DNA of 50,910 nucleotides from a virus. This document shows positions 1,462-16,668 of this stretch, in pieces. The notes below the pieces were generated by a model. The model had not been told where the DNA came from and did no database searches. It saw only the letters and a list, made by a program, of their open reading frames with translations. Both the position numbers and the translations under genes were made by a program. Numbering within the stretch: position 1 is the stretch's first letter; each line of letters starts with the position of its first letter. Where the stretch lies: IMG/VR virus record IMGVR_UViG_3300033475_000035; one strand, given 5' to 3'.

Positions 1462-1824
1462 ATGTATACAGCGTTACTTATCGAAGATGATCCAATGCAA
1501 GCAAAAATACAGTCACACATGTTAACAGCAGCAGGCTTTGAAGTTACCCATTGCGAAAACGGCTGCAAAGGCATAGGACGTGCATTAAAATCACGTTTTG
1601 ACGTTATTGTAACTGATATTGATTTACCTGACATCCAAGGTGACTCTATTGCAAAGATATTAAGCTCATACTACAATGGCACCGTGCCTATTTATATGCT
1701 TTCAGCAAATCAAGAGCACTTTAAAGTTGGCATAGATGATCATGGCATTGCATGCAGAATGCAAAAACCATTTAATAAAACTATGGCTGCAATGATAAAA
1801 ACTCAAGTTTCAAAGAGGATATGA
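1462..1824 (+). CDS. Stand-alone CheY-like response-regulator receiver domain
   Basis: AAGGAG RBS then ATG 1462. All canonical receiver residues are present: E8-D9-D10, D52 in VIVTDIDLPD, S81 in MLSA, and K102-P103 in QKPF. Confidence 0.85.
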   Translation: MYTALLIEDDPMQAKIQSHMLTAAGFEVTHCENGCKGIGRALKSRFDVIVTDIDLPDIQGDSIAKILSSYYNGTVPIYMLSANQEHFKVGIDDHGIACRMQKPFNKTMAAMIKTQVSKRI

Positions 1825-1825
1825 G

Positions 1826-2167
1826 ATGAGTGAAGATGAAAAAGATTTATCAACTAAAGATAAAATAAAATATGGAAGCGAGTATAATCTTTATACCCTT
1901 ATTGAGTCTCTTCATAAGATGAACATGCATCTAGTGGATTACATTCGCGTGTATCATCAAAAGCAGGTCGAGACACTTAGTAAATTTAATGATAACAATA
2001 AAGATGAAAATATTGATCTCTACCAAGCTGTAAAAGATGGATATGACATGTCGCATAATGTTATTACTTTTCTAAATGCTAACAAGAAAATGCTACATGA
2101 GCTTGAGAAACTGCCTGGAGGAGTTAGACCTAAAGAATCCTATTACTCGGTCTCTGAAGAGCTTTAA
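1826..2167 (+). CDS. Hypothetical protein, translationally coupled to the receiver gene
   Basis: The ATG lies 1 nt after the receiver stop codon. No recognisable motif. Confidence 0.6.
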   Translation: MSEDEKDLSTKDKIKYGSEYNLYTLIESLHKMNMHLVDYIRVYHQKQVETLSKFNDNNKDENIDLYQAVKDGYDMSHNVITFLNANKKMLHELEKLPGGVRPKESYYSVSEEL

Positions 2168-2188
2168 TAGGGCTACAAGACGCTATAA

Positions 2189-2215
2189 CTGTCGATACTT
2201 ATCTGGTATCGACAG
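2189..2215. terminator. Perfect 10-bp hairpin at a convergent gene junction (bidirectional terminator candidate)
   Basis: CTGTCGATAC ttatctg GTATCGACAG. Confidence 0.55.
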
Positions 2216-2335
2216 GTCTCTTTCAAAGCTAAGGTAAAGTTGACAAGGATAATAACCCGTTGTACCATAAAATGGCTAAAACAGGGGTTGGTTAATTACC
2301 TCATCTATAACCTGCTACGTACCTTGTTTTAGCAA

Positions 2336-2713
2336 TTAATCAAACCTGATACGTCTTTTATATTTCTTGAAATACATTTCATTAAGATTATATTTATCCC
2401 AATTATCCCAAACTTGTAACTTCTTAGAATAACTATGAACGATAGCCTCTTCAAGAAGGCTGGGTCTTTTACATTTGACTTTGTCTTGCTTTATACAAGG
2501 AACTCTCCTAGAGGGAATAAATACAGATTGAACACTTCCTTGTTCCCAACTCTTAAAACTTGCCTTTAGTTCTTCCTGGACACATCTAAATTTTTTTTTA
2601 TGATCATGAAGAGCATAAATTGAGGGGGAGTCATGCCTGACAGAGGTAATAATTATGTCTTTCTTTTTAAACAAATTTTTAAAATAACTTATAAATATCT
2701 CTAGATATTTCAT
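2336..2713 (-). CDS. Hypothetical protein
   Basis: An internal ATG (MKYLEIF...) is preceded by GGAGG. The longer track ORF lacks an RBS. Confidence 0.6.
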   Translation of the reverse strand: MKYLEIFISYFKNLFKKKDIIITSVRHDSPSIYALHDHKKKFRCVQEELKASFKSWEQGSVQSVFIPSRRVPCIKQDKVKCKRPSLLEEAIVHSYSKKLQVWDNWDKYNLNEMYFKKYKRRIRFD

Positions 2714-2777
2714 GTTACCTCCTAAGCCACCATCACGATAACAAGTACTATTTAATAATATCCTATGTTTTCTCGTT

Positions 2778-3158
2778 TTAAGCATAAAATTCGTTAGAGA
2801 AATCAAATATCTCTATAGAAATACCCTCTTCATCATGAGGGTTATAAAGCTTGTAAGCGCGCATAAAGACTATCTGGCTATCATCATTGTATGCAAGTCC
2901 ATTACACGCGTCTAAAACCGCTTTTACGCAATTATCTATGTCTATCTTCCTGTTGTTTTTTAGTATGAATTTTATATCCGCTCCTATAAGCCCATTCATG
3001 GGGCTATAAAGGCCATTTTTTAACATGCAAGCCTTAACATGCCACGCTATCTCCGTTTCATATTCCTTCGTCTGTTTAGGCGTATAAACCCCCTTAGCGC
3101 CAATTCTTGGCCTTTGTTTACTCCGAATCTTTGTTTTTATATGGAGCTTAAGGTTCAT
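2778..3158 (-). CDS. rusA: RusA-family Holliday junction resolvase
   Basis: IDIDNCVKAVLDACNGLAYNDDSQIV matches the RusA D-x-D-N...K-A..D-A....D-D-x-Q-V core. Confidence 0.85.
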   Translation of the reverse strand: MNLKLHIKTKIRSKQRPRIGAKGVYTPKQTKEYETEIAWHVKACMLKNGLYSPMNGLIGADIKFILKNNRKIDIDNCVKAVLDACNGLAYNDDSQIVFMRAYKLYNPHDEEGISIEIFDFSNEFYA

Positions 3159-3367
3159 TCCGGTCTAGCTTCTAAAATCATAATGACACTTCTAAGACCA
3201 TGAATAAGTCCTTGAATAAAGTTATATTGCCTTTTAAACTCCTCATCTCCTCCCAGAGCCCGAGACATTTGTGATAGACTCTTAAGCTCTTGAAGCTTCC
3301 TATTTTGAATTTCTAGGAGTTTTTTCGCGAATTTCTCAGTAAAATCAAGATGTTCTCTATCGCCCAT
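3155..3367 (-). CDS. Hypothetical protein
   Basis: ORF with a 4-nt overlap to rusA, in an operon context. Confidence 0.6.
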   Translation of the reverse strand: MGDREHLDFTEKFAKKLLEIQNRKLQELKSLSQMSRALGGDEEFKRQYNFIQGLIHGLRSVIMILEARPE

Positions 3368-3554
3368 CTGTATTCTCCATTTTTATCCTATAAAGCTCCT
3401 GATTCCTTGATATAAACAAATCCCCATCATGCGCATGGTGTAACACTGACAATGCATTCATTATCAGTGAATTTATATCCCCCACCTTATAATGCTTTAC
3501 TAAATAATCAAGCGCTACCATCTCTTCATCAGTAAAATCTATTTCTATTTTCAT
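3357..3554 (-). CDS. Hypothetical protein
   Basis: ATG (MKIEIDFTDEEM) immediately after the hfq stop codon. Confidence 0.5.
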   Translation of the reverse strand: MKIEIDFTDEEMVALDYLVKHYKVGDINSLIMNALSVLHHAHDGDLFISRNQELYRIKMENTDGR

Positions 3555-3555
3555 A

Positions 3556-3819
3556 TTAATACCTGTACATCTCATCTTCAGAAGAGGTCAGATTGAAAAC
3601 GAGATTCTTAGGAACAATAGAAGAGATAGCAGTTTTATAAATAATCTGACTTGAAGTCGATTCAAGATTGACTAACAATATGCAGGTTCTATTAAACTCT
3701 TGAATATGCCCTGAGAGCTTGATGCCATTTACTAAATATATATTCACCTCACTTCTTCTTCTTTTAAGCTCTTTAAATAAACGATATTCGAGATGATCTT
3801 CTCTTGGTTTTTGTAACAT
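3556..3819 (-). CDS. hfq: Hfq-like Sm-fold RNA chaperone
   Basis: [25 protein letters not shown]...[13 protein letters not shown] aligns with E. coli Hfq [25 protein letters not shown]...QMVYKHAISTVVP. AAGAGGA RBS. Confidence 0.9.
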   Translation of the reverse strand: [87 protein letters not shown]

Positions 3820-3861
3820 TTTATTCCTCTTTTAGCATTTGTTTGTGTAAATAAAAATAAC

Positions 3862-4065
3862 TTATAAAAGAAAGGTCGATATAATGGACTTCTTTGGTAT
3901 TTTCCAGTATTTTTGTCCTGTTTGCGTTTCCATCAACTTCGCTCTTTTTAATCTGCCATTTTGGCATGCCATGGCTAAACATCTCGGCGTTCTTTCTACA
4001 CCATGGAAATTCAGAAAGCTTATGGCCTCTTTAATAGTAAGATAGTTTTTTTCCACTTTGATCAC
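3862..4065 (-). CDS. Excisionase/AlpA-like HTH DNA-binding protein, first gene of the leftward operon
   Basis: GTG start after GGAGGGAGG. YLTIKEAISFLN...WKIPKKSI resembles 11484-11699. Confidence 0.55.
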   Translation of the reverse strand: MIKVEKNYLTIKEAISFLNFHGVERTPRCLAMACQNGRLKRAKLMETQTGQKYWKIPKKSIISTFLL

Positions 4066-4202
4066 TAGTCCTCCCTCCTGTCATTAAATTAACCCATACA
4101 TTATGGTTCCACATATAGAAGAAGTCAAATTCTTTTTAAAAAGTTTGATTTTTTTTTAGATGTTGCTATTCTAATACCAAATCATAGGTTAAAGAGGGTG
4201 TG

Positions 4203-4775
4203 ATGGCTAATAAAAAAGGCCGGTCTTCTATTAAAGGTGAGATAGAAGCAGGAAGACCGAGCATGTTAACAAAAGAGACTCACGACAAAATAGTTTATGC
4301 GGTAGGGAAAGGTGCCACATATCTTTTAGCGGCTGAATATGCGCGCATTTCGAAGGAGACATTACGAAGGTGGAAAGCGTGGGGAGAGCAGTTTGAGAGT
4401 GAATTTATCGATGAAAAAATGGATAGCATGACCGCGGAAGAAAAAAAGACTTACCTTGAAGAAATAAGTCAGTTGGAGCGCTATAAGTACTATGCATTAT
4501 GTGTATCTCTACGCGAGGCAAGGGCTACTGATGCCTTGGCTTTATTAGATAGGATAGATGCTGCTTGTGCAGAGGCTAAAGGCTGGGGTGCTGCTGCGTG
4601 GAAATTGGAAAGGGTTCATAGCTATACTGAGAAAAGAGTTGTAGAGAGTAATATTGAGCTTAATGGCAAGGTAGCTAATTTCAATGCTGATATGACAAAT
4701 ATGACTGAAGAGCAGGCGGTTAATCTTTATAAAGATTTCTTAAATAGTCTTTCGAGTCAAGAAGGAGACTTGTGA
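4203..4775 (+). CDS. HTH protein with a terminase-small-subunit-like N-terminus (early regulator or TerS candidate)
   Basis: GRPSMLTKETHDKIVYAVGKGATYLLAAEYARISKETLRRW resembles the common GRPSKY...TIYRW TerS N-terminal HTH. It lies 12 kb from terL. Confidence 0.6.
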   Translation: MANKKGRSSIKGEIEAGRPSMLTKETHDKIVYAVGKGATYLLAAEYARISKETLRRWKAWGEQFESEFIDEKMDSMTAEEKKTYLEEISQLERYKYYALCVSLREARATDALALLDRIDAACAEAKGWGAAAWKLERVHSYTEKRVVESNIELNGKVANFNADMTNMTEEQAVNLYKDFLNSLSSQEGDL

Positions 4776-4825
4776 GAAATGTAATAATGGACTTTAATTA
4801 AATCAGAATTGATATAGGTGGAAAA

Positions 4826-5050
4826 ATGCTTAGCGAAGAAGATGTAAAATTAATACATGAGGCAGCAATTCTTTATAAAGACGTCTTGCGTAGAGGAACA
4901 TTATCGTTATCAGATTTAAAGCAGATTTTTGATGAGATGATGGATAGTGGCAAGTTAGAATGGGAAAATAAAATGAGGCATTCATTTATAGAAATATTTG
5001 CCACACATGGGATTGATTGTAGTATCTTTTTGAAAGACTATAAAAAATAA
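4826..5050 (+). CDS. Hypothetical protein, paralogue of 5467-5715
   Basis: AGGTGG RBS. The shared C-terminus is FATHGIDCSIFLKDYKK versus FASHGIDATIFLKDFKG. Confidence 0.65.
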   Translation: MLSEEDVKLIHEAAILYKDVLRRGTLSLSDLKQIFDEMMDSGKLEWENKMRHSFIEIFATHGIDCSIFLKDYKK

Positions 5051-5065
5051 TGATTGGGGTGATAA

Positions 5066-5323
5066 ATGATATTTGAGGAGCATGAGGGAAAGCAGGCTGT
5101 TGTTTTTGATTTATCAAAATCTGGTAGCGATCGCCTGTGCCGATTGTTACGTAAAAAATTTATTCTACCTCTTGGTAGTAAACGTCATTTATCTCTAGAG
5201 AAGCATGGAGATTATATACAGGCGTTTGTTGATATGGGTTTTCCAGGCTCTGCCATGTTAAAGTCGGTGCTGGAGCAGTTTGGTGAAGCAATAATCTATT
5301 TTAATTTAAAAAAAACAGAATGA
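5066..5323 (+). CDS. Hypothetical protein
   Basis: ORF with a GGGGTG RBS. Confidence 0.6.
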   Translation: MIFEEHEGKQAVVFDLSKSGSDRLCRLLRKKFILPLGSKRHLSLEKHGDYIQAFVDMGFPGSAMLKSVLEQFGEAIIYFNLKKTE

Positions 5324-5451
5324 AAGATTTTTTAACAATGTTCCTGTTGATTTTCTTTATTTTTTTGTTACTATGTGTATTACTGGGTGTGGGGGGATTG
5401 TTGGTTCTTTCTATTGACCAGGCTATGATTGATTTGGGGATGTATAATTAA
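5320..5451 (+). CDS. Small hydrophobic membrane peptide (43 aa), not in the ORF track
   Basis: ATGA overlap with the upstream stop codon. Translation is MKDFLTMFLLIFFIFLLLCVLLGVGGLLVLSIDQAMIDLGMYN. It fills an otherwise empty gap. Confidence 0.4.
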   Translation: MKDFLTMFLLIFFIFLLLCVLLGVGGLLVLSIDQAMIDLGMYN

Positions 5452-5466
5452 AAAGGAGATAGTTAA

Positions 5467-5715
5467 ATGAATGAAGATGTGCTAAGTGATGTGGTTAGGG
5501 CGCAGGTGATATTGCTTCTTAATGATGTAGCAGCAGAATATAAGGAGAAGGAGAGCAGGGGAGTGCTAACTATTACTGACCTGAAAAGGATTTTCGATCA
5601 TATCATCGAAAAGACGGTTTGTGATTATGAAAAAGAAATTAGAGCGACCTGTGTTGAGGTATTTGCTTCGCACGGGATTGATGCAACTATTTTCTTGAAG
5701 GACTTTAAAGGATAA
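5467..5715 (+). CDS. Hypothetical protein, paralogue of 4826-5050
   Basis: AAAGGAG RBS. Shares the motif TL(S/T)..DLK.IFD and the C-terminus. Confidence 0.65.
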   Translation: MNEDVLSDVVRAQVILLLNDVAAEYKEKESRGVLTITDLKRIFDHIIEKTVCDYEKEIRATCVEVFASHGIDATIFLKDFKG

Positions 5716-5752
5716 AGATTAAAAAATATATATTATTTAATAGGAGGTTAAA

Positions 5753-5968
5753 ATGCCTGGATTAGTGTTAACAAGGAGAGTAGGTGAGTCAGTTTTCATT
5801 GGAAGAAAAATAAAGGTGACAGTTATTTCTGCCGCAGGAGGTCAGGCCAAAATTCGGTTTGATGCCCCTGAGGAAGTTGAAATTCACCGAGAAGAGGTTC
5901 TAAATAGAATCTTAGGTGTGGAAGAAGACGGCGATTTCGCCAAGGATGAGCATCAGAACCATGACTAA
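5753..5968 (+). CDS. csrA: CsrA/RsmA-family translational regulator
   Basis: LVLTRRVGESVFIG..IKVTVI...IRFDAPEEVEIHREEV aligns with CsrA [22 protein letters not shown]...IGVNAPKEVSVHREEI. AGGAGG RBS. Confidence 0.9.
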   Translation: MPGLVLTRRVGESVFIGRKIKVTVISAAGGQAKIRFDAPEEVEIHREEVLNRILGVEEDGDFAKDEHQNHD

Positions 5969-6152
5969 GATTGTCGCAAGTCTAGATAATTACATTGCCC
6001 TTTTGAATATGATTAAAGAGTTATATCCGAATGCTACGATAACTCATGATTCCGATATCAATATAAATGTTGAAGTTGAACATCAAATTACGAATATTTG
6101 TATTCGTGGTTATTTACATGATGGAGGTATGGATAGTGTTGACGAATATTGA
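5961..6152 (+). CDS. Hypothetical protein
   Basis: The ATG overlaps the csrA stop region. The upstream part of the track ORF lies inside csrA. Confidence 0.5.
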   Translation: MTKIVASLDNYIALLNMIKELYPNATITHDSDININVEVEHQITNICIRGYLHDGGMDSVDEY

Positions 6153-6264
6153 AGATATTGTGCTTTTTAACGAAGAAATAGACATACTCAAGCAGAGTGT
6201 CATGGAGATGGCTCATAAATGGGATGTTAGTGTACCTATTTGTAGTGAAGATGATAAGGAGTAA
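6136..6264 (+). CDS. Small hypothetical protein (start uncertain; ATG 6118 and 6121 are alternatives)
   Basis: GGAGG at 6123-6127, 8 nt before GTG 6136. Confidence 0.3.
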   Translation: MLTNIEDIVLFNEEIDILKQSVMEMAHKWDVSVPICSEDDKE

Positions 6265-6268
6265 AGAA

Positions 6269-6514
6269 ATGTCACGTAATTTGTATGCCTGTTTGACGCC
6301 TATTGAATACTTCGTCGGTGGTGGGGAATTGATAGATATTTTAACCAAGCACTGTGAGCGAAGTGGACGTAGATCAGATTTGCGGGATGTGATGGTAAAT
6401 GCTAATGATATACCATATTTTTATGGTCTAGCTGATGGAGGGATTGAAGGGGCACAGAAAATAATTGATTTGATAGAAAAGTATGGGTCCATTGAATTAA
6501 AGGTGCGTTATTAA
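6269..6514 (+). CDS. Hypothetical protein, paralogue of 9360-9614
   Basis: AGGAG RBS. MSRNLYA... and the C-terminus GIEGAQKIIDLIEKYGSIELKVRY match MSRSLHA...GVDGAQRLLDLIEKYDSIEVYVQY. Confidence 0.6.
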   Translation: MSRNLYACLTPIEYFVGGGELIDILTKHCERSGRRSDLRDVMVNANDIPYFYGLADGGIEGAQKIIDLIEKYGSIELKVRY

Positions 6515-6564
6515 AGCTGCAGATTACATGTAATACATGTTTAAACAAAAATAGGAGGATAAGC

Positions 6565-6864
6565 ATGAATATAGAGATAAAACCAGAAGATATAGATAAG
6601 ATAGTTAAAGACGCAATTTTAAATTCATCACTAGGTAGTATTATCACTGATATAGTTAAGGAGTGTCTTGACCCAAGGAATATCTATCGTAGCGGAATGG
6701 TAAATGTTATTGAATCAGTAGTTAGAGAAACAACAAAAAATATTCTGCGTGATCAGCACTATGATAAGCTCGTGTCTGCAATCAATGAAGGCTTGGAGAA
6801 GAAGTTAACACCAAAATATTTTAATAAAATAGTTGATAAAGTATTACAGGAGATTATGGATTAA
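6565..6864 (+). CDS. Hypothetical protein
   Basis: AGGAGG RBS and a clean ORF. Confidence 0.65.
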   Translation: MNIEIKPEDIDKIVKDAILNSSLGSIITDIVKECLDPRNIYRSGMVNVIESVVRETTKNILRDQHYDKLVSAINEGLEKKLTPKYFNKIVDKVLQEIMD

Positions 6865-6888
6865 TTATATTAATAAAGGGAAAAAACA

Positions 6889-7482
6889 ATGACAGCAGAT
6901 AAACGTACAGTATCAACAGATGCTTTAGAAACGCTAGGCATGATACACACTAAAGAAGAATTCAGGGATGCTATTCATTTAGCAGTTATTCCTGCAGTTG
7001 CTGGCCAGCTTTTGGATATTGGTACGCATGTAATGCTTCAGGATGGTATTGCGTCTATGGCCAAACCATATGGCCCGGAGGCGATAGGTATAGTTGACCC
7101 CTTTTTAAAAAAACATGTAAGCCCCGGAGAGAAATTCTGGGTAGTCATTTATCCTCGTCAAATAAACTCTTTACGTCACGTTTGGACTCACCCTAAAATT
7201 GATATTGAAGTTGATTCATCGCGTAGCTCTATTGAAGAGAATGCAAAATTTAAGAAATCCTGGGCCTGGATGGAGCGTTATGCATCTTCTTTGGGTGTCG
7301 ATGTTGTTTATCTTATGCGTGGAGCTGGAAATTTTATAGCTACCGGTGAATGTCTCTCTGGCATCAATAACAAGGATAAGGAAGATTGTTACAAGGAAAC
7401 AGATCCGGAGTTTTGGCATCATTATAATATAATTACAGGGTCCGAAATACATGATGTTGATTTCTTTGCGTGTTGTTGCTAG
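6889..7482 (+). CDS. Hypothetical protein (ends in FFACCC)
   Basis: 197-aa ORF with an RBS. No motif recognised. Confidence 0.65.
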   Translation: MTADKRTVSTDALETLGMIHTKEEFRDAIHLAVIPAVAGQLLDIGTHVMLQDGIASMAKPYGPEAIGIVDPFLKKHVSPGEKFWVVIYPRQINSLRHVWTHPKIDIEVDSSRSSIEENAKFKKSWAWMERYASSLGVDVVYLMRGAGNFIATGECLSGINNKDKEDCYKETDPEFWHHYNIITGSEIHDVDFFACCC

Positions 7483-7574
7483 GTTTAGGAGCGCGATAGG
7501 CTTTATCCGAATAAATATTATTCCGTATGTATAAATCCGGAATGCGAAGACCACCCTAATGAAATGAGGTAAAT

Positions 7575-7991: not shown

Positions 7992-8582
7992 ATGTTTAAA
8001 AATGGTGGATATCAGCCTGAAGGACCTTCAATTAATACAAATAATCCTCCAACAGGAGGGTCTGGAGTTTTTAGGGTGGAACCAAAGATGAGTAATGACC
8101 CTATTTCTTGTCATAAGTGTGGTTATGATATGTCACTTGTCCTTTCTCCTTGTTGGTCTGGACTTGTATGCAGGAATGCATCTTGTGATGATTTTGATCG
8201 GCGGTTTTTGGAAGATAATATTCAATCAGAATACTCATCAACTAGTGTTTGCTTGGTATGTGGGCATAGTGGCTGTCAAGGAGCCAACGGTCTTCCATGT
8301 CCATGGGTCTTTCCTTCTGCAGATGGGGCGGTCATAAAAAATCATGATTTATCTGACAATGTTAACCATCCCACTCATTACAAAGCCGATGCAAGATGCT
8401 CGAATTGTAATCATGAAATTGAATGTATTGATGTTGTAAGGGGGATGTCATTTAATCTTGGAAACGCCATGAAATATATCTGGCGTTGCGAAAAGAAAGG
8501 AAATAAAATAGAGGATTTAAGGAAGGCGCTCTGGTACATAGAGGATGAGATAAAAAATAATGAGAAAAATAACAACATATAA
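7992..8582 (+). CDS. DUF3310-type protein with a Cys-rich (zinc-ribbon-like) N-terminal half
   Basis: The C-terminus NHPTHY...IECIDV...FNLGNAMKYIWRCEKKG..IEDLRKALWYI matches my recollection of the DUF3310 pattern. The N-terminus has CHKCG...CRNASC and CLVCGHSGC. Confidence 0.7.
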   Translation: MFKNGGYQPEGPSINTNNPPTGGSGVFRVEPKMSNDPISCHKCGYDMSLVLSPCWSGLVCRNASCDDFDRRFLEDNIQSEYSSTSVCLVCGHSGCQGANGLPCPWVFPSADGAVIKNHDLSDNVNHPTHYKADARCSNCNHEIECIDVVRGMSFNLGNAMKYIWRCEKKGNKIEDLRKALWYIEDEIKNNEKNNNI

Positions 8583-9343: not shown

Positions 9344-9359
9344 GGAGGGGTTGGCTAAT

Positions 9360-9614
9360 ATGTCTCGTAGTTTACACGCAAGAAAAGTTATCCATGGCGA
9401 GTTTGTTGGAGAAGGGCCATTGATAGATATGTTGTCAAAAAAACATGGTATGTTTAGTCATGTAACACCGTATACTGATTCATGGCCATTGAAGTTAGAT
9501 TGCAGTGATTTAGAGTATATTACTGGTCTTAGAGATGATGGGGTGGATGGGGCGCAAAGATTATTAGATTTAATAGAAAAATATGACTCTATTGAAGTAT
9601 ATGTTCAATATTAA
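9360..9614 (+). CDS. Hypothetical protein, paralogue of 6269-6514
   Basis: AAGGAGG upstream. ATG 9360 gives MSRSLHA, which matches the paralogue N-terminus. Confidence 0.6.
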   Translation: MSRSLHARKVIHGEFVGEGPLIDMLSKKHGMFSHVTPYTDSWPLKLDCSDLEYITGLRDDGVDGAQRLLDLIEKYDSIEVYVQY

Positions 9615-9645
9615 GAAAGAGAGATTGAATAAGGAGAATCTCATA

Positions 9646-9846
9646 ATGAGTGAGGATAAAGTAGGTATATGTGTTTCCACGATTTTGAACGTGAAGACGG
9701 AAGAAGTTGGGGTTATTTTCGCAATACCGCTTGACGATGATTGGATAGTTTTGGAGAGTAAATTCTATACGCTTGAAGGAGATGATTGTAAAAAATACAT
9801 GATGGAACGCAATAATAAAAATAATACCATTGTGCATGCGGTATAA
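9646..9846 (+). CDS. Hypothetical protein
   Basis: AAGGAG RBS before the internal ATG. Confidence 0.55.
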   Translation: MSEDKVGICVSTILNVKTEEVGVIFAIPLDDDWIVLESKFYTLEGDDCKKYMMERNNKNNTIVHAV

Positions 9847-9901
9847 AATGATGGCATGTGAGGTTGGCCTATATTACGTCGATTGGTGAACAGGAGGAAA
9901 T

Positions 9902-9976
9902 ATGGAAATAAAATTTAGGGCCTGGGTGAAACCCCTGGACAAGTTGATGCGGGAAGTTATAAATGAAACCATTTAA
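9902..9976 (+). pseudogene. 24-codon remnant resembling a YopX-family N-terminus
   Basis: AGGAGG RBS then MEIKFRAWVKPLDKLMREVINETI and a stop. IKFRAW is the typical YopX N-terminal motif. Confidence 0.35.
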
Positions 9977-10202
9977 TTTAGAAAAAGCATTAGCTGGAGA
10001 GACAGTTATCACCAGAGATGGGCGCAAGATAACTGAGGTTTCTTACTGCAAAGATCGAACCACCCATTATCCTGTCAGAGCTAAGATAGAGGGTCAATAT
10101 TATCGTAAAACCTATACTATAGATGGTTATACATATCTCGATAAAGAGGAAGATAAACGTGATTTGCTCATGTTAGGGGAGCAAGAAAGTGAGACCTTTT
10201 AA
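9963..10202 (+). CDS. KPFNLEEALAG-module protein (paralogue family, 1 module)
   Basis: MKPFNLEKALAGETVITRDGRKITEV...DLLM. Confidence 0.65.
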   Translation: MKPFNLEKALAGETVITRDGRKITEVSYCKDRTTHYPVRAKIEGQYYRKTYTIDGYTYLDKEEDKRDLLMLGEQESETF

Positions 10203-10623
10203 CTTAGAAGAAGCTTTAGCAGGAAAACCAGTTGTTACGAGAGACGGTCGTAAAGTAACAGACATTTTTTGTTGTAAAGATCGGAATATTAAGTATCCAG
10301 TGATAGCTAGAGTTGTTGAAATAGATCTTGATGACTCCATTCAAGACTATACTATAGACTATACTATAGATGGTCATTATTGGGATGATAAAGAGGAATC
10401 TTCCTTTGACTTATTTATGGCGGAGGAAGGTCTCCCTAAATACGAAATTCATATTATAATGACAAAGCATGGTCCTATGTGTCGTATTGATAAGGAAGGG
10501 TGTGGATTAGTTTTTTTGGATAAAGGCGATTATCTTATAAAAACAATTTATGGAGTAGACATTCCCATAGACATTCACAATGAAATTTTACATGTAGCTG
10601 AGTTAATGCAAAAAAAGAAGTAA
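10189..10623 (+). CDS. KPFNLEEALAG-module protein (1 module plus a C-terminal extension)
   Basis: GTG start after GGGGAG. Translation begins RPFNLEEALAGKPVVTRDGRKVTDI...DLFM. Overlaps the previous paralogue by 14 nt. Confidence 0.65.
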   Translation: MRPFNLEEALAGKPVVTRDGRKVTDIFCCKDRNIKYPVIARVVEIDLDDSIQDYTIDYTIDGHYWDDKEESSFDLFMAEEGLPKYEIHIIMTKHGPMCRIDKEGCGLVFLDKGDYLIKTIYGVDIPIDIHNEILHVAELMQKKK

Positions 10624-10868: not shown

Positions 10869-10883
10869 GGAAATAGGCTCAAT

Positions 10884-11255
10884 ATGACTGACCTACCAAT
10901 ACCATTCTCTTTAGAAGAAGGACTGGCTGCAAAGAGGGTAATTACAGTAACTGGAATTGTTGTTGGAAAATTGAGTGTAGTAGACTTACCAGAGCCGCTC
11001 TTATATGGGTCTGTTAAAGGATGTATGTACACATGGGATTTATTGGGAAAGAATTGTAAGACCATATTTAAGGAGAAAATGGGTCAAGATTATGACCTCT
11101 TAATCTCATTAGATACTCCTAAGTACTATATTGCATTATATAGAGATAGAGAAGGTTGTGTTAGGAATCATCTTTTTACGGAGTCTCAAAAGCATTGCGT
11201 GCCTAAAGATAAGGATAATATTTATAAGATAATAGAGGTGGAATTTGATGGTTAG
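10884..11255 (+). CDS. Divergent KPFNLEEALAG-module protein
   Basis: IPFSLEEGLAAKRVITVTG...YDLLI. Confidence 0.55.
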   Translation: MTDLPIPFSLEEGLAAKRVITVTGIVVGKLSVVDLPEPLLYGSVKGCMYTWDLLGKNCKTIFKEKMGQDYDLLISLDTPKYYIALYRDREGCVRNHLFTESQKHCVPKDKDNIYKIIEVEFDG

Positions 11256-11487
11256 CCCATTTGAAACATATGAAATGAGAGTTTTCCTAACTCTAATGCG
11301 GCATAAGAGAGATTTTTACATAAAAGAAAGGAATAGAATATCATATAGCATGTTTCGTTTCTTAAACCCATTCTATAAAATGCAAATGAAATTCCTAAAT
11401 AGCATAATCTGGGATATGGATGAGATTATTCTTTACATAGAAAAAGAGCAGGCAAAAGCTAAGCATGCACAGGTTAGATCTCCTTAA
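11248..11487 (+). CDS. Hypothetical protein
   Basis: GAGGTGG RBS before ATG 11248. Confidence 0.5.
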   Translation: MVSPFETYEMRVFLTLMRHKRDFYIKERNRISYSMFRFLNPFYKMQMKFLNSIIWDMDEIILYIEKEQAKAKHAQVRSP

Positions 11488-11699
11488 TCTAGCTTAAAAT
11501 ATTTAATTAGGTCTTGTTTTCTTACATACCATAAGTACCCGTTTCCTGTTCGAGGCACTGCAATTTTCTGACATGGGAAGCACCCTCTGTTGTAATAACC
11601 TCTGAGGGAAGTTCCTGTTTGGCATATTCCATATGTTTCATAGAGCCACTTGGCTGCTTCTGATAAAGTAAGCTTATCTTCTGATGGTAACTTGCTCAT
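11484..11699 (-). CDS. Excisionase/AlpA-like HTH protein, divergent from the XRE gene
   Basis: LTLSEAAKWLYETYG...WYVRKQDLIKYF. Same architecture as 3862-4065. Confidence 0.6.
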   Translation of the reverse strand: MSKLPSEDKLTLSEAAKWLYETYGICQTGTSLRGYYNRGCFPCQKIAVPRTGNGYLWYVRKQDLIKYFKLD

Positions 11700-11749
11700 G
11701 TTTTATTTCCAGCATATTACAGAATAATTCTAGTTACAGACGGGTGTGT

Positions 11750-11790
11750 TGTCAATATGATGTCAATTTTATTGATAAGAGAATTGATAA
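11750..11790. promoter_or_regulatory. Four phased operator-like half-sites in the divergent intergenic region
   Basis: TGTCAAT at 11750 and 11761. ATTGATAA, the near reverse complement, at 11771 and 11783. Spacing is 10-12 bp. Confidence 0.45.
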
Positions 11791-11833
11791 TTTAATTTTT
11801 TCTGCTATTATTAAAAATTTTAAGGGGGAAGGT

Positions 11834-12178
11834 ATGAGAAAATCAAACAAGTTGAACATTGGTAAAAATATTCGTAGTCTTAGGATTAGGGCCGGGCTTA
11901 CTATTAATGATTTGGCCACAAGGATAGGTGTGACTCATTCATGTCTTCTAGGTCTTGAGAACAGGGCGATGCCTGCTGCGATAAAGAGATTAGATCAAAT
12001 CGCCAATGAGCTTGGGGTTGGGCTTCTAGATATTATTGATGTAGAAAAGAGTAGTATTAAAGAAAGCAATGATTCTTTGTTTTTTGCGAAATGGTCTATT
12101 TTAAAAAAATTATCTAAAAAGGATGCTAAGTTGTTATTAATGATTGCCGAGAAAATTGCCTTGAATAGCAAAAAATAG
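11834..12178 (+). CDS. XRE/Cro-CI-family HTH transcriptional regulator
   Basis: GGGGGAAGG RBS. IGKNIRSLRIRAGLTINDLATRIGVTHSCLLGLENR is a classic HTH_3 pattern. Confidence 0.8.
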   Translation: MRKSNKLNIGKNIRSLRIRAGLTINDLATRIGVTHSCLLGLENRAMPAAIKRLDQIANELGVGLLDIIDVEKSSIKESNDSLFFAKWSILKKLSKKDAKLLLMIAEKIALNSKK

Positions 12179-12205
12179 TAAGGTTTAATATAGGAGGATT
12201 AAGAG

Positions 12206-12655
12206 GTGGGGCCATCATTTTCCGAAATAAATCAGGATTCGGTTGAAAAATTCTTAAATAATGAAACTGATTTGTATATTTATCTGAGTCAGGTTGAAGG
12301 CGTAGTCAGTCCGTTATTCGATAATACTTTCATAACAAAAGTAAGTGTTACAGGTTATTGTAAGCTAACTGATGAGCATCGAAGACCTGATATTTTTGCA
12401 GATGCTCCTGGGATGATTATTATTAGTGCATACAAGCTTGAAATCTTTGCCCGTGATTCTGTCTATCCTAAAGCATGGAGTACCAATAAGAAGGATAATT
12501 TCTTTAGGCCCCTTGTTTATTATGATAAGGATGCGGTCTTGAATAAGAGATATGCTCTACATCCTGTAAAAGATGAGTTTGGTGTAACGTGCTATAGCTA
12601 TGCTATTACGCAAAAAATGCTGTTTATTGAAGATGAGGAGATATTAAATGATTGA
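12206..12655 (+). CDS. Hypothetical protein
   Basis: AGGAGG 8 nt before GTG. Confidence 0.6.
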   Translation: MGPSFSEINQDSVEKFLNNETDLYIYLSQVEGVVSPLFDNTFITKVSVTGYCKLTDEHRRPDIFADAPGMIIISAYKLEIFARDSVYPKAWSTNKKDNFFRPLVYYDKDAVLNKRYALHPVKDEFGVTCYSYAITQKMLFIEDEEILND

Positions 12656-12839
12656 ATGGGTTTATGTGATTTTCTTGAGCACTCCTGGGTCAGGCGGTAT
12701 GGAGGCCATTCCTATGGCAACACAAGCTGCTTGTATACAGGCTTTGCGTGAGCAGCATAAGGTGAGTGGTTTTGGTAAACACATTGATGATTTTTGCATA
12801 AACTCTAAAACTGGAAAAATAATAAAAAAAGATGATTAA
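12648..12839 (+). CDS. Small hypothetical protein (hydrophobic N-terminus)
   Basis: GAGGAG RBS and overlapping start. Confidence 0.5.
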   Translation: MIEWVYVIFLSTPGSGGMEAIPMATQAACIQALREQHKVSGFGKHIDDFCINSKTGKIIKKDD

Positions 12840-12993
12840 TACATTAATCGAGTTACAGAATAGAATAAGAAATAGGATTTTTGAGTGGGAAGAGTCTCAT
12901 GTATTTTATACTAGTGATATAGTTCAGGGGTTGCAGGAAGCTTCTGACATAATTGATGACATGCTAAAGGAGTTAAAGAAATATGAGCGATAA
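12832..12993 (+). CDS. Small hypothetical protein (53 aa), not in the ORF track
   Basis: Manual translation is MINTLIELQNRIRNRIFEWEESHVFYTSDIVQGLQEASDIIDDMLKELKKYER. It overlaps both neighbouring genes in typical operon style and fills a gap. Confidence 0.35.
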   Translation: MINTLIELQNRIRNRIFEWEESHVFYTSDIVQGLQEASDIIDDMLKELKKYER

Positions 12994-13492
12994 TATAAGT
13001 ATTGGAAGTGAAAGGGTTAGAGCTGCTTTCAATCCAAGTGGGAATGATATGGTAACTATTCTTAAGGAACAAACAGCTGTCTTGATTGATCACTGCGAAG
13101 CGTTGAAAAGACTAGATGGTCGTCTTGCGTCTTTAGCTCAAACAGCTTATGAGGAAGCATGCATGTGGGCAGTTAAAGCAGCTACAACTCAACCAAATGG
13201 CTTCCCTGTGCGTAATCCAGATAATTTTCATATTACACAGTCTGTAGATGACCAAGATTTTCATGATGTATGGATAGATGTTACTGAGCGGTTACCAATG
13301 CCTAACCAAGTTGTGCTGGTGTTGGGTGAGAATTATGAAGGCACGCGGCCTTTTACAGCTAGATATTATGAGGTTGAGAAGCAAATAGATTGGTTCTCTA
13401 ATACCGACCGTGCTCCAATTTCCAATGTGACGCATTGGATGCCCGTTCCATCGATATCATCGCATAGGATAAGGATAAAAAAGGATGAGTGA
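12983..13492 (+). CDS. Two-domain protein: an N-terminal helical hairpin (NPSG...MWAVKA motif) plus a C-terminal DUF551-like domain
   Basis: The N-terminus is RVRAAFNPSGNDMVTILKEQTAVLIDHCE...LASLAQTAYEEACMWAVKAAT. The C-terminus is WIDVTERLP...VLVL...NVTHWMPVP. Confidence 0.7.
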   Translation: MSDNISIGSERVRAAFNPSGNDMVTILKEQTAVLIDHCEALKRLDGRLASLAQTAYEEACMWAVKAATTQPNGFPVRNPDNFHITQSVDDQDFHDVWIDVTERLPMPNQVVLVLGENYEGTRPFTARYYEVEKQIDWFSNTDRAPISNVTHWMPVPSISSHRIRIKKDE

Positions 13493-13570
13493 TCTCTACT
13501 TTATATAAAAGGTGAGGCTAAATACTATCCTGAATGAAGAAGATTAAATAAAGTTAAACAGAGGTACTGT

Positions 13571-14044
13571 ATGAAACCATTTAATTTACAGGAAGCTTTA
13601 GCAGGTAAGCCCGTGGGTACTCGGGACGGAAGGAAGGTTCTTAATATTGCTTGTTATACCTCTCCTGAGACCCTGAGTTTTCCGATAAGAGCCATAATTG
13701 ATTACCCAGATGGGTTCGAGGCATGTGAGCAACGCTATACCTTAAATGGATGTTATTATATATCTGAGTGCAAATCTGATATGGATTTGTTCATGCAGGA
13801 AGACTTCATTAAGCCAATACTTAAGCCGTTCAATATTGAGCAGGCTATCCACGCTATACATACTGTAACTACTAGGGATGGCAATGGGATTGCAACTCTT
13901 TATTTGCTTGATAGAGAAAAATATGGATTCCCGATCATGGCAGCGCTAAAAGGAGAGCCTAATTTCATGTTTTGGACTATAGACGGGATTTATTATCCAG
14001 GTAAGCAGAGTGGATTGGATTTATTTATATTGGGCCCTGAATGA
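13571..14044 (+). CDS. Tandem two-module KPFNLEEALAG-family protein
   Basis: MKPFNLQEALAGKPVGTRDGRKV...DLFM is followed by LKPFNIEQAIHA..TTRDGNG...DLFI. Confidence 0.7.
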   Translation: MKPFNLQEALAGKPVGTRDGRKVLNIACYTSPETLSFPIRAIIDYPDGFEACEQRYTLNGCYYISECKSDMDLFMQEDFIKPILKPFNIEQAIHAIHTVTTRDGNGIATLYLLDREKYGFPIMAALKGEPNFMFWTIDGIYYPGKQSGLDLFILGPE

Positions 14045-14167
14045 CCTATAAAAATATTTTAGACAATAATTATCAATTTTTATTTGAAATATTTTTTATT
14101 AAGAGCTATTATAAGAGTGTAGTGCTAGTAGTTTACTTTCAACAACATATCATAATCGGAGATAGTT

Positions 14168-14527
14168 ATGACCGTAGAAATTTTAGAATCCCAAAAAAGA
14201 TGTAGAGAAACTCTTGTAAAAATGAATAATACGTTGACAGCGTATCAGACTTATCGAATATCTGCAGAGGCTCTTATTAATTATACTGAGGCTAGTCAGG
14301 AGTTTAGAGCTGATATAGAGAAGATAAAGAAAGGATTAGCAGAGTTAAAGAGTACAAGAGAATCAAATACTCTTATTTTTTCTAACTGGCTTGAAGAGAG
14401 GAAGCAAAGGTTTAAGCCAAATCCACGCTCCTTTATCCCGCAAATGGAAAAAGAGACTCTTCCTAAGTCTAATAATTCATCAAATGGAACTTGGTGGAGT
14501 AGATGGACTAGAATGTTTGGTTTGTAA
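14168..14527 (+). CDS. Hypothetical coiled-coil protein in a self-contained cassette (own promoter-like element and terminator)
   Basis: TTGAAA-17-TATTAT lies upstream (about 14085-14113) and a hairpin lies downstream. Confidence 0.6.
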   Translation: MTVEILESQKRCRETLVKMNNTLTAYQTYRISAEALINYTEASQEFRADIEKIKKGLAELKSTRESNTLIFSNWLEERKQRFKPNPRSFIPQMEKETLPKSNNSSNGTWWSRWTRMFGL

Positions 14528-14539
14528 TAGGTAATTCTC

Positions 14540-14571
14540 ATTGCACCAGTATGTATATTTGCTGGTGCAAT
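14540..14571 (+). terminator. Hairpin terminator candidate
   Basis: ATTGCACCAG, 12-nt loop, CTGGTGCAAT, then atcttt. Confidence 0.5.
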
Positions 14572-14594
14572 ATCTTTAATAAAGAGCTTCAATC

Positions 14595-14768
14595 ATGAAA
14601 ATTCAAGAATGGATTTCCTATGGGAAATTTATAGATGACAATAAGATGTTTAGAAGGCCAAGGGCTAATGCATCAGTAAGTCCTGAGGGTAAAAGTGTTG
14701 ATGTAAAAGCCTATCAAGATAATAAAGATAAGGTATTGCTCTCTCTAAAGCAAAGTAATAAGAGTTAG
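14595..14768 (+). CDS. Possible small ORF (57 aa) upstream of the sigma-4 gene
   Basis: Open frame MKIQEWISYGKFIDDNKMF... with a weak RBS. Confidence 0.25.
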   Translation: MKIQEWISYGKFIDDNKMFRRPRANASVSPEGKSVDVKAYQDNKDKVLLSLKQSNKS

Positions 14769-14772
14769 CGCA

Positions 14773-15396
14773 ATGACATTTGAAAAGGAATATAGAGTAA
14801 AGATTGGGGTAAGAAATAATCTTATACTGAGAAAAATTGAAGGACTTGGTTGTAAGAGCGTTAGTGAGTTTTGCAGAGTATATAATTTGAGCGCAACCCT
14901 TGTGAATTCTATTATAGCAATGACCCTCTCTCCTTTAACTTCTTCTGGATTCCCCCGCCGCATAGTGCAGGAGCTTCTTGATATATTTAATTGTGGTTTG
15001 GATGATTTATTTACTGAAAATCAAATTAATACCAAGCTTGAGCATTCCACCCGTCAAGTGGAGGTTTCTGAGACGGAAGCCGCTTATTATCTGCAGTCTC
15101 AATCATATAATATTGTTGAAAATATGCTTGAACATGAGTCTCAGGAGATAATCGATAAGCAAATTTTTGGTCATCTTGGTAGTCTGTCACCAAGAGAGCA
15201 ATTAGTAATTAAGGCTAGATTTGGACTTGATGGGAATCCTGAGCAAACCCTTGCTGAAATAGCAAAAGAACAAAGATTGAGCATGGAAAGAATTAGGGGT
15301 ATTGAAGCTAGAGCATTAAGAAAGCTGAGATGGAGGTTTTGTAGAGAGAGTGGCTTAGTGCATCACCCTTGGGGTAGATTTACAACATCTTATTAA
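14773..15396 (+). CDS. Sigma-70 region-4 domain protein with an N-terminal HTH. No recognisable region 2.
   Basis: LSPREQLVIKARFGLDGNPEQTLAEIAKEQRLSMERIRGIEARALRKLR matches sigma-70 region 4 (LTPREEKVLRMRFGI....TLEEVG..F.VTRERIRQIEAKALRKLR). Confidence 0.8.
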   Translation: MTFEKEYRVKIGVRNNLILRKIEGLGCKSVSEFCRVYNLSATLVNSIIAMTLSPLTSSGFPRRIVQELLDIFNCGLDDLFTENQINTKLEHSTRQVEVSETEAAYYLQSQSYNIVENMLEHESQEIIDKQIFGHLGSLSPREQLVIKARFGLDGNPEQTLAEIAKEQRLSMERIRGIEARALRKLRWRFCRESGLVHHPWGRFTTSY

Positions 15397-15424
15397 AAAT
15401 CAGATACATAAAAGGATCAAATTT

Positions 15425-15760
15425 ATGAACAATTGGATAGAAAAGGATGCATTGGGTCTGCTATATGAAGCGATAGAAATTGAAAATAAAATGCCTGAGC
15501 AGGGTGAATGGGTATTGGTAGTTGCACAGATCTCTGAAGATCTTCCTAAGGAAATTTTTATAGCCCGCTGGATTGAAGATCTTATCAGGTTTGACCCTAG
15601 AACAGGATATGGAGAAACTGTATGGTCTACACATACTTGTGAGCGTATCATTAACGTAACTCATTGGATGCCACTTGGAAATATGCCAATGGTCGATGCA
15701 AAAGTCGCATCCTTTGTAAGTTGTAAAGCATGCTGTCCGTCCGAGGTCGTAAAAGAATAA
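15425..15760 (+). CDS. DUF551-like protein
   Basis: WIE...MPEQGEWVLVV...VTHWMPLGNMP. Confidence 0.7.
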   Translation: MNNWIEKDALGLLYEAIEIENKMPEQGEWVLVVAQISEDLPKEIFIARWIEDLIRFDPRTGYGETVWSTHTCERIINVTHWMPLGNMPMVDAKVASFVSCKACCPSEVVKE

Positions 15761-15948
15761 CGCCCTTTGGTTTGAAGGCTATTGGTAAATTCTTTTGTTT
15801 TCATAGAGTACCTTTTGTGTTAAAACTTATCCAGCATGTCATTTTTCGACTTTTTAATCAACTTTTAACACATTTTTGCAAGCATTTTTCGAAGCCTGTT
15901 TTGCGTTAGGAGAGATATACAGCTATAAAAAAAGATGAGGTATTAAAT

Positions 15949-16668
15949 ATGAAATGGATAAGGACAATAGAAGAGTATCCTCTTGATGCGGAAGAAGACC
16001 TTGTTGTCCGTAATATATTTGGTAAGTATGAGATTGCCACATATAGGCGCATGGGTGGAAAAGGAGTATGGCTTATTGGTTCATCCATAGTGGATGATGA
16101 GATGATATATGCTTGGATGAGAATCCCGTTAGTAGATGCGATTCCCCTGGAAAAGGTTGTTGATTTGATGATTGAAGATGGTAGTAGTTATTCTAAGGAG
16201 TTTGATACGCACTCGGGCGCTGTCCAGAGAATGTTAAACGTATTGCGTGATTGTGGGATAATATATTTAGATCAATTAAATAATATCGATTTGATAAATC
16301 TTATTAAGACTCCTAATGTAGGGATTGCAATAATACGCCTATTAATTCTTATTATGAAGCGTTATAAGATAAAATCTTATCAGGAGTCTATTATTGAGAA
16401 CATTGATGAACATCCTATTACTCTTAATAAATTTATAGATATCTTATTTTTATACCCCGAAAAAATTCTTGCCACTGAACTCGCTAGGAAAGAGCTAGAG
16501 GACACGGGGAAAGCCAAGATTATGGCTACGTTGAGGAAATTAGGAATGAGTTCCTTAAAAGATTTAAAGAGCTTAACCATACGTCAATTAAATCGGATGA
16601 TTAAGCACGACTATCCAGGAAATAGGGTTATCAAATCGGTAGCGGAATATTTAAACCGCAAGAATTAA
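15949..16668 (+). CDS. DUF551-like N-terminus plus two RNAP alpha-CTD-like helix-hairpin-helix modules. TerS candidate by position only.
   Basis: N-terminus: KWIRTIEEYP...YAWMRIP. HhH modules: MLNVLRDCGIIYLDQL...LIKTPNVG and MATLRKLGMSSLKDLKSLTIRQL. Compare alpha-CTD SANCLKAENIHYIGDL...LLKTPNLG. Confidence 0.65.
   Translation: MKWIRTIEEYPLDAEEDLVVRNIFGKYEIATYRRMGGKGVWLIGSSIVDDEMIYAWMRIPLVDAIPLEKVVDLMIEDGSSYSKEFDTHSGAVQRMLNVLRDCGIIYLDQLNNIDLINLIKTPNVGIAIIRLLILIMKRYKIKSYQESIIENIDEHPITLNKFIDILFLYPEKILATELARKELEDTGKAKIMATLRKLGMSSLKDLKSLTIRQLNRMIKHDYPGNRVIKSVAEYLNRKN

Follow-up and report, generated by a model that had tools for sequence, protein, structure and literature searches.

The window analysed here, a 50,910-nt stretch of viral DNA (IMG/VR record IMGVR_UViG_3300033475_000035), carries homologues of four bacterial regulators: a stand-alone response-regulator receiver, a remodelled Hfq, a CsrA homologue and a protein that ends in a primary-sigma-like region 4. 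Because the two 127-nt ends of the window are identical, its unique sequence closes into a circle of 50,783 bp, which agrees with the 50.8 kb given in an earlier note on this DNA, and the window is the complete, circularly assembled genome of an uncultured tailed phage. That note had claimed five classes of host regulator, and the open reading frames (ORFs) that it named do exist where it placed them, all of them outside the virion and lysis module (16738-46785). Response_reg, Hfq, CsrA and Sigma70_r4 are found above their Pfam cut-offs, but the fifth class, the C-terminal domain of the RNA polymerase alpha subunit (alpha-CTD), is not, leaving four of the five classes and four of the six genes. 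The broader statement that one phage bears several host-regulator homologues in its early regions therefore stands, with four Pfam domains confirmed and none of them in the virion module. The four-gene set is real, and it is unusual.

Hfq is the most unusual of the four regulators. The 87-aa protein was claimed to be an Hfq homologue and scores 56.2 bits with Pfam Hfq, well above the curated cut-off of 27, with 46% identity to E. coli Hfq. Like the bacterial Hfq proteins of the E. coli/Pseudomonas type, it has the Sm fold signature, a distal-face strand ('IYLVNGIKL') identical to that of E. coli, the distal residues Y28, I33 and K34 (E. coli Y25, I30 and K31) and the basic rim patch K19 R20 R21 R22 (E. 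coli R16, R17 and R19). It differs from them in being encoded by a phage, in a beta3-beta4 loop that is 3 aa longer than that of E. coli, and in the uridine pocket of the proximal face, which is altered at four positions (Q8E, Q41R, F42T and H57T). E11, R44, T45 and T63 of the phage protein stand at these positions, and only K56 and Y55 are retained in the pocket. Judged by these residues, the phage Hfq should bind A-rich and rim-dependent RNAs, and not the 3' U-tails of small RNAs (sRNAs).

The remodelled face is not confined to the window. A 'YKTAI' signature (E8/T42/T57 in E. coli numbering) recurs in the uncultured phage contigs L015, L019, L022 and L028-L032, in a group that also shares a His two residues before E8 and the longer loop; these Hfq-like proteins exceed the Pfam Hfq cut-off and have no match in GenBank phages. 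Host-like Hfq proteins from 14 viral contigs have H57 in every case, an aromatic residue at position 42 (Ala in one) and Q8 in all but one. Since a patterned change of one face recurs while the other faces are kept, the sequences argue for a selected change of function rather than decay. Phage Hfq is rare: a pattern scan of IMG/VR gave 17 Hfq loci against at least 231 CsrA loci, a tblastn search of 50,697 phage records matched bacterial contigs only and none of the true phages, no PHROG family matches the protein, and we found no paper on phage-encoded Hfq. A search of a word-indexed protein database returned the query alone and is uninformative.

Within the genome, hfq overlaps the next gene and shares its leftward unit with RusA (2778-3158), and the locus recurs with the same neighbours in three JGI metagenomes. 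Two observations concern the related contigs. In L015 (4870-5545), L019 (4817-5318) and L022 (3380-4112), the gene directly after the 'YKTAI' hfq overlaps it and encodes a MarR/SarA-like winged-helix protein, recognised by Pfam in L015 and by eye in L019 and L022, which suggests that hfq and its winged-helix neighbour form a conserved two-gene regulatory cassette in the 'YKTAI' contigs. In L027 (BCQK01000122.1, 36-1093), there are two neighbouring ORFs, the first of them truncated where the contig ends, and by eye each seems to have two Hfq-like (Sm) domains in tandem; the complete 150-aa ORF scores 97.4 bits with Pfam Hfq over two matched stretches, and the C-terminal domains bear the variant motif as 'YKTAI' or 'YKSAV'.

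The 71-aa CsrA/RsmA homologue had likewise been claimed, and it matches Pfam CsrA at 68.6 bits (cut-off 27) and phrog_9500, annotated 'CsrA-like regulator', at E 1.4e-19. Relative to the CsrA of E. coli and to another canonical CsrA/RsmA sequence, it conserves L2, L4, R6, R7, V40, H43, R44, E45 and E46, and its RNA-binding residues are all either conserved or conservatively replaced (V42I, I47V). Because the known RNA-binding residues are conserved, the phage CsrA is predicted to be canonical and should act as a normal CsrA. Such genes are not new in phages: we counted 90 GenBank phage records, at least 231 IMG/VR loci and one PHROG family, and phage CsrA/RsmA homologues have already been described (Campa et al. 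2021, PMC8450108; Sobrero & Valverde 2020, PMC7366521; PMC11879866). CsrA/RsmA represses CRISPR-Cas, and phages have been proposed to exploit this and to manipulate host physiology and CRISPR-Cas through their own CsrA (Campa et al., PMC8450108). Knock-down of a phage csrA by CRISPR interference, that of gp28 of phage PTXU04, led to smaller plaques (Adler et al. 2025, PMC11879866). The protein of the window resembles the described phage CsrAs in being a small CsrA-family protein with its RNA-binding residues kept, in its early position within a tailed-phage genome, and in that the host lineage probably has a CsrA of its own; what sets it apart is the presence of an Hfq, a receiver and a sigma fragment beside it in the genome. 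The gene is surrounded by small phage ORFs. Some of the small genes nearby form paralogous pairs on the plus strand (4826-5050 with 5467-5715, 43% identical; 6197-6514 with 9351-9614, 42%), and csrA directly follows one member of the first pair.

The 120-aa receiver consists of a receiver domain alone, with no output domain (Response_reg over aa 5-106, 54.4 bits, cut-off 30.2). In an alignment to CheY and Spo0F, its residues E8/D9, D52, S81 and K102-P103 correspond to D12/D13, D57, T87 and K109-P110 of CheY. The acidic pocket is complete and the phospho-acceptor Asp52, Ser81 and Lys102-Pro103 are all present, so the label 'phosphorylatable' given to it earlier is a reasonable one on residue grounds. 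The protein is thus alike in its receiver-only build and in its pocket to CheY, Spo0F, the CpdR/DivK type and the phosphate-sink receivers. Unlike these single-domain response regulators, it is encoded by a phage, with no kinase gene in the same genome, and the aromatic switch residue Y106 of CheY is Arg in it. Its nearest genomic relatives are just 32-35% identical, nearly all receiver matches among the 50,697 phage records searched by tblastn are wrongly filed bacterial contigs, and our literature search on phage receivers returned nothing specific. A Shine-Dalgarno sequence (AAGGAG) stands 7 nt ahead of the ATG, the stop codon abuts the start of a 113-aa ORF of unknown function (1826-2167), and a replication-initiator-like gene lies on the other side.

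The fourth protein, of 207 aa, had been described as having sigma region 4 without region 2, and this description is borne out. Sigma70_r4 matches at 50.5 bits (cut-off 24.1) over aa 135-186 only, Sigma70_r2 is absent from the protein and from all 50 family members scanned, and the family profile matches just region 4 of SigA/RpoD in the PDB, with E values down to 3e-32. Ahead of region 4 lie a five-helix helix-turn-helix (HTH) domain and a linker resembling region 3.2; among the same 50 members, HTH_26 (Cro/C1-type) was found in 12 of the N-terminal domains and Sigma70_r3 in two. Alignment with hhalign to Salmonella RpoD (residues 409-611) gave a probability of 99.6 and ran from about region 3.2 to the end; in it, R584 and Q589 of sigma-70, which read the -35 element, correspond to Met and Gly in the copy of the window. 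An AlphaFold2 model from a 67-sequence alignment (predicted local distance difference test, pLDDT, 88.3) matched primary sigma chains in Foldseek over about one third of its length (TMq about 0.3), and the best match in BFVD, over the whole length, was a 200-aa protein of an uncultured marine virus (E 5e-10).

What did not survive is the idea that this protein is a host mimic peculiar to the phage. It belongs to a very large phage family of proteins of about 200 aa with the same architecture: 967 representatives were found at E<=1e-10, the 150 best of which all align at query positions 5-187, that is, over essentially the full length, and the family comprises at least 3874 clusters at 90% identity and at least 364 IMG/VR loci, whose contexts are phage contigs. 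Members of this family have a region 4 nearly identical to the one in primary sigma factors, down to the 'RHPSR' tail at the C-terminus. The family is not covered by any NCBIfam model, the sigma models matching the C-terminal part only and far under their cut-offs, and our literature search on sigma fragments lacking region 2 found nothing specific. Given the absence of region 2 from its sequence, the protein cannot be an autonomous sigma factor; it is probably a common phage transcription factor that uses its sigma-4 domain on DNA and/or the beta-flap. It would in this respect be like T4 AsiA and MotA and the late activators of the RinA/ArpU type (PMC6755090, PMC3152322), which act on region 4, the -35 element or the beta-flap or activate late operons, and like the genes of phage late activators its gene stands just upstream of the packaging and late operon. 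It has no sequence relationship to AsiA, MotA or RinA, and unlike them it reproduces primary-sigma region 3.2-4 itself, joined to a further helix-turn-helix domain. Elsewhere the family gene lies in early or middle regions of phages, some genes upstream of the terminase; in the window it lies 1.3 kb before TerL, after a hairpin with a 12-bp stem.

The alpha-CTD class had been assigned to two genes, and for neither did the assignment hold. In the 239-aa orphan protein immediately upstream of TerL, RNA_pol_A_CTD (PF03118) reaches 13.7 bits over 32 residues (cut-off 23.8, E 0.052); it is outscored by an overlapping HTH_41 match (19.6 bits), which is likewise under its cut-off. A hidden Markov model (HMM) that we built from seven real alpha-CTDs, two of them from phages, ranked aa 94-125 of this protein at the top of all ORFs of the window (12.8 bits, E 8e-4), and none of 5000 shuffles reached 10 bits. 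The match covers 32 of the 68 model positions, aligning from helix 1 to the start of the second hairpin; it reads 'KTPNVG' where the alpha-CTD has 'KTPNLG', and in this weak alignment R94, N97 and G125 take the places of R265, N268 and G296, with A127 and I128 in those of K298 and S299. At 1.0 bit, the second claimed module is at noise level. Instead of several alpha-CTD-like modules, the sequence therefore suggests one weak motif like those of the alpha-CTD and of helix-hairpin-helix (HhH) proteins. Rare phage proteins that are alpha-CTD-like do exist for comparison, namely gp23 of Ruegeria phage V16 and c00050 of Bacillus phage Goe8. Among 5.8 billion protein clusters, the only homologues of the orphan were itself and an identical 145-aa fragment, a PDB sequence search with it returned nothing, and a single-sequence AlphaFold2 model (pLDDT 38.8) is unusable, which renders its fold search meaningless. 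Two other identities were tried for it and rejected: a DUF551 domain seen by eye at the N-terminus was unsupported by an HMM from the two DUF551 paralogues of the window, and a role as small terminase (TerS), suggested by the place of the gene next to TerL, finds no match in any TerS family. The junction gene does exist, as a 177-aa ORF that runs on the minus strand from 320 to 1 and then from 50783 to 50570 on the circularised sequence. It has no Pfam match at E<=1, scores 1.7-3.0 bits (noise) with our alpha-CTD model, and among PDB sequences yields four weak, unrelated matches (E 0.5-1.8), none of them an alpha-CTD.

The coordinates of these genes and of the units and signals around them are collected in Table 1. 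The rightward virion and lysis module encodes TerL, portal, a MuF-like protein, an S78 protease, the major capsid protein, tail proteins, duplicated fibre proteins and lysozyme, and the DNA outside it is of early type. GC content is even across the window (0.34-0.40), which holds no tRNA genes, and no integrase was found in the genome. A TerS-like protein was recognised only at 4200-4775 (+; phrog_4102, E 2.5e-16), at the head of the long rightward array and 12 kb upstream of TerL (16738-18285, +), the slot next to TerL being taken by the orphan.

Table 1. Regulator genes, claimed alpha-CTD genes, transcription units and signals in the window
Feature	Coordinates	Strand	Remark
Stand-alone single-domain response-regulator receiver, 120 aa	1462..1824	+	Pfam Response_reg PF00072
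Hfq homologue, 87 aa, proximal face remodelled	3556..3819	-	Pfam Hfq PF17209
CsrA/RsmA homologue, 71 aa	5753..5968	+	Pfam CsrA PF02599
HTH + region 3.2-like linker + primary-sigma-like region 4, 207 aa	14773..15396	+	Sigma70_r4
Orphan protein, 239 aa, immediately upstream of TerL	15949..16668	+	weak alpha-CTD/HhH-like motif at aa 94-125 (nt 16228-16323)
Junction gene, N-terminal part, start codon at 320	1..320	-	ORF rebuilt on circularised sequence
Junction gene, C-terminal part, with the claimed HhH/alpha-CTD-like stretch	50570..50783	-	ORF rebuilt on circularised sequence
Rightward unit	457-2167	+	holds receiver gene
Leftward unit	4065->2336	-	holds hfq and RusA
Long rightward array of small genes	from 4200	+	holds csrA
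Leftward block	50860->47410	-	includes Sak4-like AAA_24 ATPase
Sigma-70-like promoter candidate, TTGACA-17-AATACT, 10/12 consensus matches	1403..1431	+	just upstream of receiver
Sigma-70-like promoter candidate, TTGACT-17-CATAAT	4100..4128	-	for leftward unit with hfq
Terminator-like hairpin, 11-bp stem	2189..2215	+	ends 457-2167 rightward unit
Terminator-like hairpin, 12-bp stem	14540..14571	+	upstream of unit with sigma-region-4 gene
Assembly overlap, exact 127-nt terminal direct repeat	1..127 = 50784-50910	.	

Relatives of this genome are few. The same proteins are present on a 50,763-bp contig from JGI metagenome 3300045391 and on short contigs from samples 3300037473, 3300037474 and 3300037511, and the portal gene was seen on one further short contig. 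Megablast against the 50,697 GenBank phage records found no close relative, the sole match being 48 nt long, and a portal-based scan of GTDB genomes found none. One structural relative emerged from the corresponding scan of IMG/VR, contig L002 (53% identical), which has the structural genes of the window at 40-75% identity and lacks its early genes; no regulator is found in the 3.9 kb that it holds upstream of the terminase or in the rest of the locus. For TerL, identities of 36-39% were found with terminases from phages of Vibrio, Pseudoalteromonas, Burkholderia and Acinetobacter, and the best matches of Hfq and CsrA are gammaproteobacterial (45-54% identity). Because these two proteins are nearest to gammaproteobacterial ones, the host is probably a low-GC gammaproteobacterium; searches based on the receiver and on CsrA and Hfq gave distant matches only and no closer pointer.

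The combination had been put forward as undescribed, and our screens agree with this. We searched the flanks (±10 kb) of other loci with the proteins of the window as queries, at single-sequence sensitivity. A second regulator was found at none of 25 Hfq loci and at none of 80 other CsrA-bearing viral loci, where neither an Hfq nor a receiver lay within 10 kb of csrA, and no locus among those screened had three of the four regulators. CsrA accompanied the sigma fragment at one of 80 sigma-fragment loci, L144 (IMGVR_UViG_3300040971_000114, 9363-10612). There csrA and the gene of a Sak4-like ATPase share a leftward early operon, directly divergent from the gene of the sigma-fragment family; this is the only recurring pair of regulators. 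The phage has no close relative, and a literature search on the four-gene combination found no paper.

In the window itself, the four genes are spread over 13 kb and both strands, each in a different transcription unit. Of the 11-mers, none recurs in as many as three intergenic regions, and no notable iterons or operators were found. Promoter-like sites number 61, against 67.5 ± 7.5 in shuffled sequence; this is not above chance, and individual sites are candidates only. No Rfam family was detected, including decoys of the CsrB/RsmY type and Hfq-dependent sRNAs (sole match at E 0.33), and Pfam scans of the remaining early ORFs revealed no further regulators. The earlier proposal of a 'coordinated takeover' finds no footing in this layout, with its four units on both strands and no common regulatory motif found. 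Given the four units, the lack of a shared motif and the lack of a recognisable Csr- or Hfq-type sRNA, independent acquisition is favoured, and the dispersed genes look like the product of it more than like a module.

We consider it somewhat probable, on balance, that the phage has gathered four host-type regulatory genes in its early region, each in a unit of its own and each acting separately. CsrA, with its conserved RNA-binding residues, would regulate translation in the canonical way, by binding GGA motifs, and enlarge the CsrA/RsmA pool of the host. Hfq would be a hexamer-forming Sm protein that has kept the arginine rim and the A-rich distal face and lost the pocket for uridines and 3' ends, presumably binding mRNAs and RNAs of class-II type rather than the poly-U tails of sRNAs; it could be a competitor or, in mixed rings, a dominant-negative partner of host Hfq, or else a chaperone with a new specificity. 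The receiver may be phosphorylated by a histidine kinase or Hpt protein of the host and would then either drain phosphate as a sink or bind a partner when phosphorylated, so that phage development responds to a host signal. The sigma fragment, from its architecture and gene position, would be the phage's own middle or late transcription factor; without region 2 it is expected neither to melt promoters nor to nucleate a holoenzyme, and would apply its region 4 to DNA and/or the beta-flap.

Several observations weigh against this reading. The presence of four individually rare genes in one genome is far more than independence predicts, and in the tblastn search Hfq was absent from true phages and receivers nearly so. 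Because four rare genes co-occur, a common cause (host lineage, lifestyle or a functional link) is plausible, and the reading of separate action may err on the conservative side. In L144, csrA lies next to the sigma-region-4 gene, which hints at such a link. The Hfq substitutions could merely inactivate the proximal face. As to lifestyle, no integrase was found, and an XRE-type repressor-like gene lies at 11684-12178.

An alternative that we regard as possible though rather unlikely is that the regulators serve the phage's own programme of gene expression and not the host. CsrA and Hfq would then be repressors or chaperones of phage mRNAs, in the manner of T4 RegA, the sigma fragment a late activator, and the receiver a device that times the switch by host physiology. 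Genes of the sigma-region-4 family typically lie between the early genes and the packaging module, as in the window, and in L144 such a gene heads the operon divergent from the CsrA early operon, an arrangement that looks switch-like. The Shine-Dalgarno sequence in the hfq leader (AGAGGAA) contains a GGA, but a GGA inside a Shine-Dalgarno sequence is trivial. In addition, no operator or promoter motif is repeated among the intergenic regions, and the residues of CsrA are those of a general host-type regulator, so that host mRNAs would be bound too.

Coordinated takeover itself may be stated in a more specific form, to which we assign a low probability. In gammaproteobacteria, a two-component relay drives decoy sRNAs, Hfq stabilises them, and they titrate CsrA. 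The receiver, the Hfq variant and CsrA of the phage could converge on this cascade, GacS/BarA - RsmY/Z (CsrB/C) - CsrA: the receiver would drain phosphate from the relay and leave fewer decoy sRNAs, the Hfq variant would disturb the host Hfq that stabilises them, and the phage CsrA would raise the CsrA dose, so that the cell stays locked in a growth-like condition, high in CsrA and low in defence, with RNA polymerase redirected by the sigma fragment. The finding of four rare genes together in this genome alone among those examined is consistent with this, as are their positions in early regions with sigma-70-like promoter candidates, the repression of CRISPR-Cas by CsrA/RsmA (PMC8450108) and the smaller plaques after knock-down of a phage csrA (PMC11879866). 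However, the layout described above speaks against it, none of the related loci examined keeps more than two regulators, and the structural relative L002 has none in its locus. The alpha-CTD leg of the proposal fails. Equally doubtful is a variant centred on Hfq, namely that the phage encodes a previously undescribed viral class of Hfq with a re-engineered proximal face, an anti-Hfq or a re-specified chaperone, which would work with a sink receiver and extra CsrA on the Gac/Csr network. If true, this would amount to a multi-layer viral takeover of bacterial riboregulation, with the Gac/Csr network forced into one state.

Finally, misassembly of bacterial DNA onto a phage, or recent capture of host genes without a role, is very improbable: Hfq, CsrA and region 4 (as compared with RpoD) are indeed 45-52% identical to gammaproteobacterial proteins, and mis-filed bacterial contigs (Acinetobacter 'phage' MD-2021a, Salmonella) carry exactly these genes, but the genes are interleaved with phage genes, hfq overlapping the adjacent gene of a RusA-containing unit and csrA lying among small phage ORFs, composition is uniform, three samples contain the Hfq locus, the assembly is circular, and identities of ~45-50% with patterned substitutions speak for long residence rather than recent capture.

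The mis-filed contigs deserve a remark of their own. Entries of phage collections under CAKLQH02/CAKLQF02 ('Acinetobacter phage MD-2021a'), AFYI01/AGRM01 (Salmonella) and OR84xxxx ('Listeria/Enterococcus phage') are evidently bacterial sequence and contain chromosomal hfq, csrA, rpoD, kdpE and ompR as well as rpoA next to rplQ; they would give false counts of 'phage-encoded regulators'. Other features of the window were also seen. The gene at 12983-13492 (+) encodes an Acb2/Tad1 hairpin domain (42.7 bits, above its cut-off) fused to a DUF551 domain, and since the Acb2/Tad1 family consists of anti-CBASS and anti-Thoeris nucleotide sponges, it may be an anti-defence gene. Three paralogues of the Phage_HP1_YO09 family (9963-10202, 10189-10623 and 13571-14044, all +) are 34-51% identical to each other, and their N-terminal motif accounts for the sole nucleotide match to known phages (48 nt, 94%, Pasteurella phages Pmp12 and Pmp13). 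A DUF3310 protein (7992-8582, +) with strong PHROG matches to 'nucleotide kinase' is Cys-rich in its N-terminal half. The 624 bp that separate the lysozyme gene from the leftward early block (46786-47409) contain no ORF of at least 90 aa and several imperfect inverted repeats; the Rfam match there, to PK-repBA (24.3 bits, E 0.33), is not significant, and this stretch may serve as an origin or encode a non-coding RNA.

Phages are known to redirect host transcription, and viral control of bacterial post-transcriptional networks such as Hfq/sRNA and Csr is far less documented; the only functional test of a phage CsrA in the literature searched is the plaque-reducing knock-down mentioned above. 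That phages bear homologues of host regulators is known. Unusual and undescribed is this particular set, one member of which is a common phage factor. With a CsrA that appears canonical, an Hfq altered in the pocket for sRNA tails and a predicted phosphorylatable receiver on one phage, the genome provides a natural test case for such control. The remodelled Hfq and the sigma-fragment family are the two most promising leads for experiments. The Hfq variant could become a tool to separate the faces of Hfq, or the first viral anti-Hfq, and the sigma-fragment family (HTH and region 3.2-4), large and uncharacterised, probably represents a common and so far unstudied way in which phages control the RNA polymerase of their hosts.

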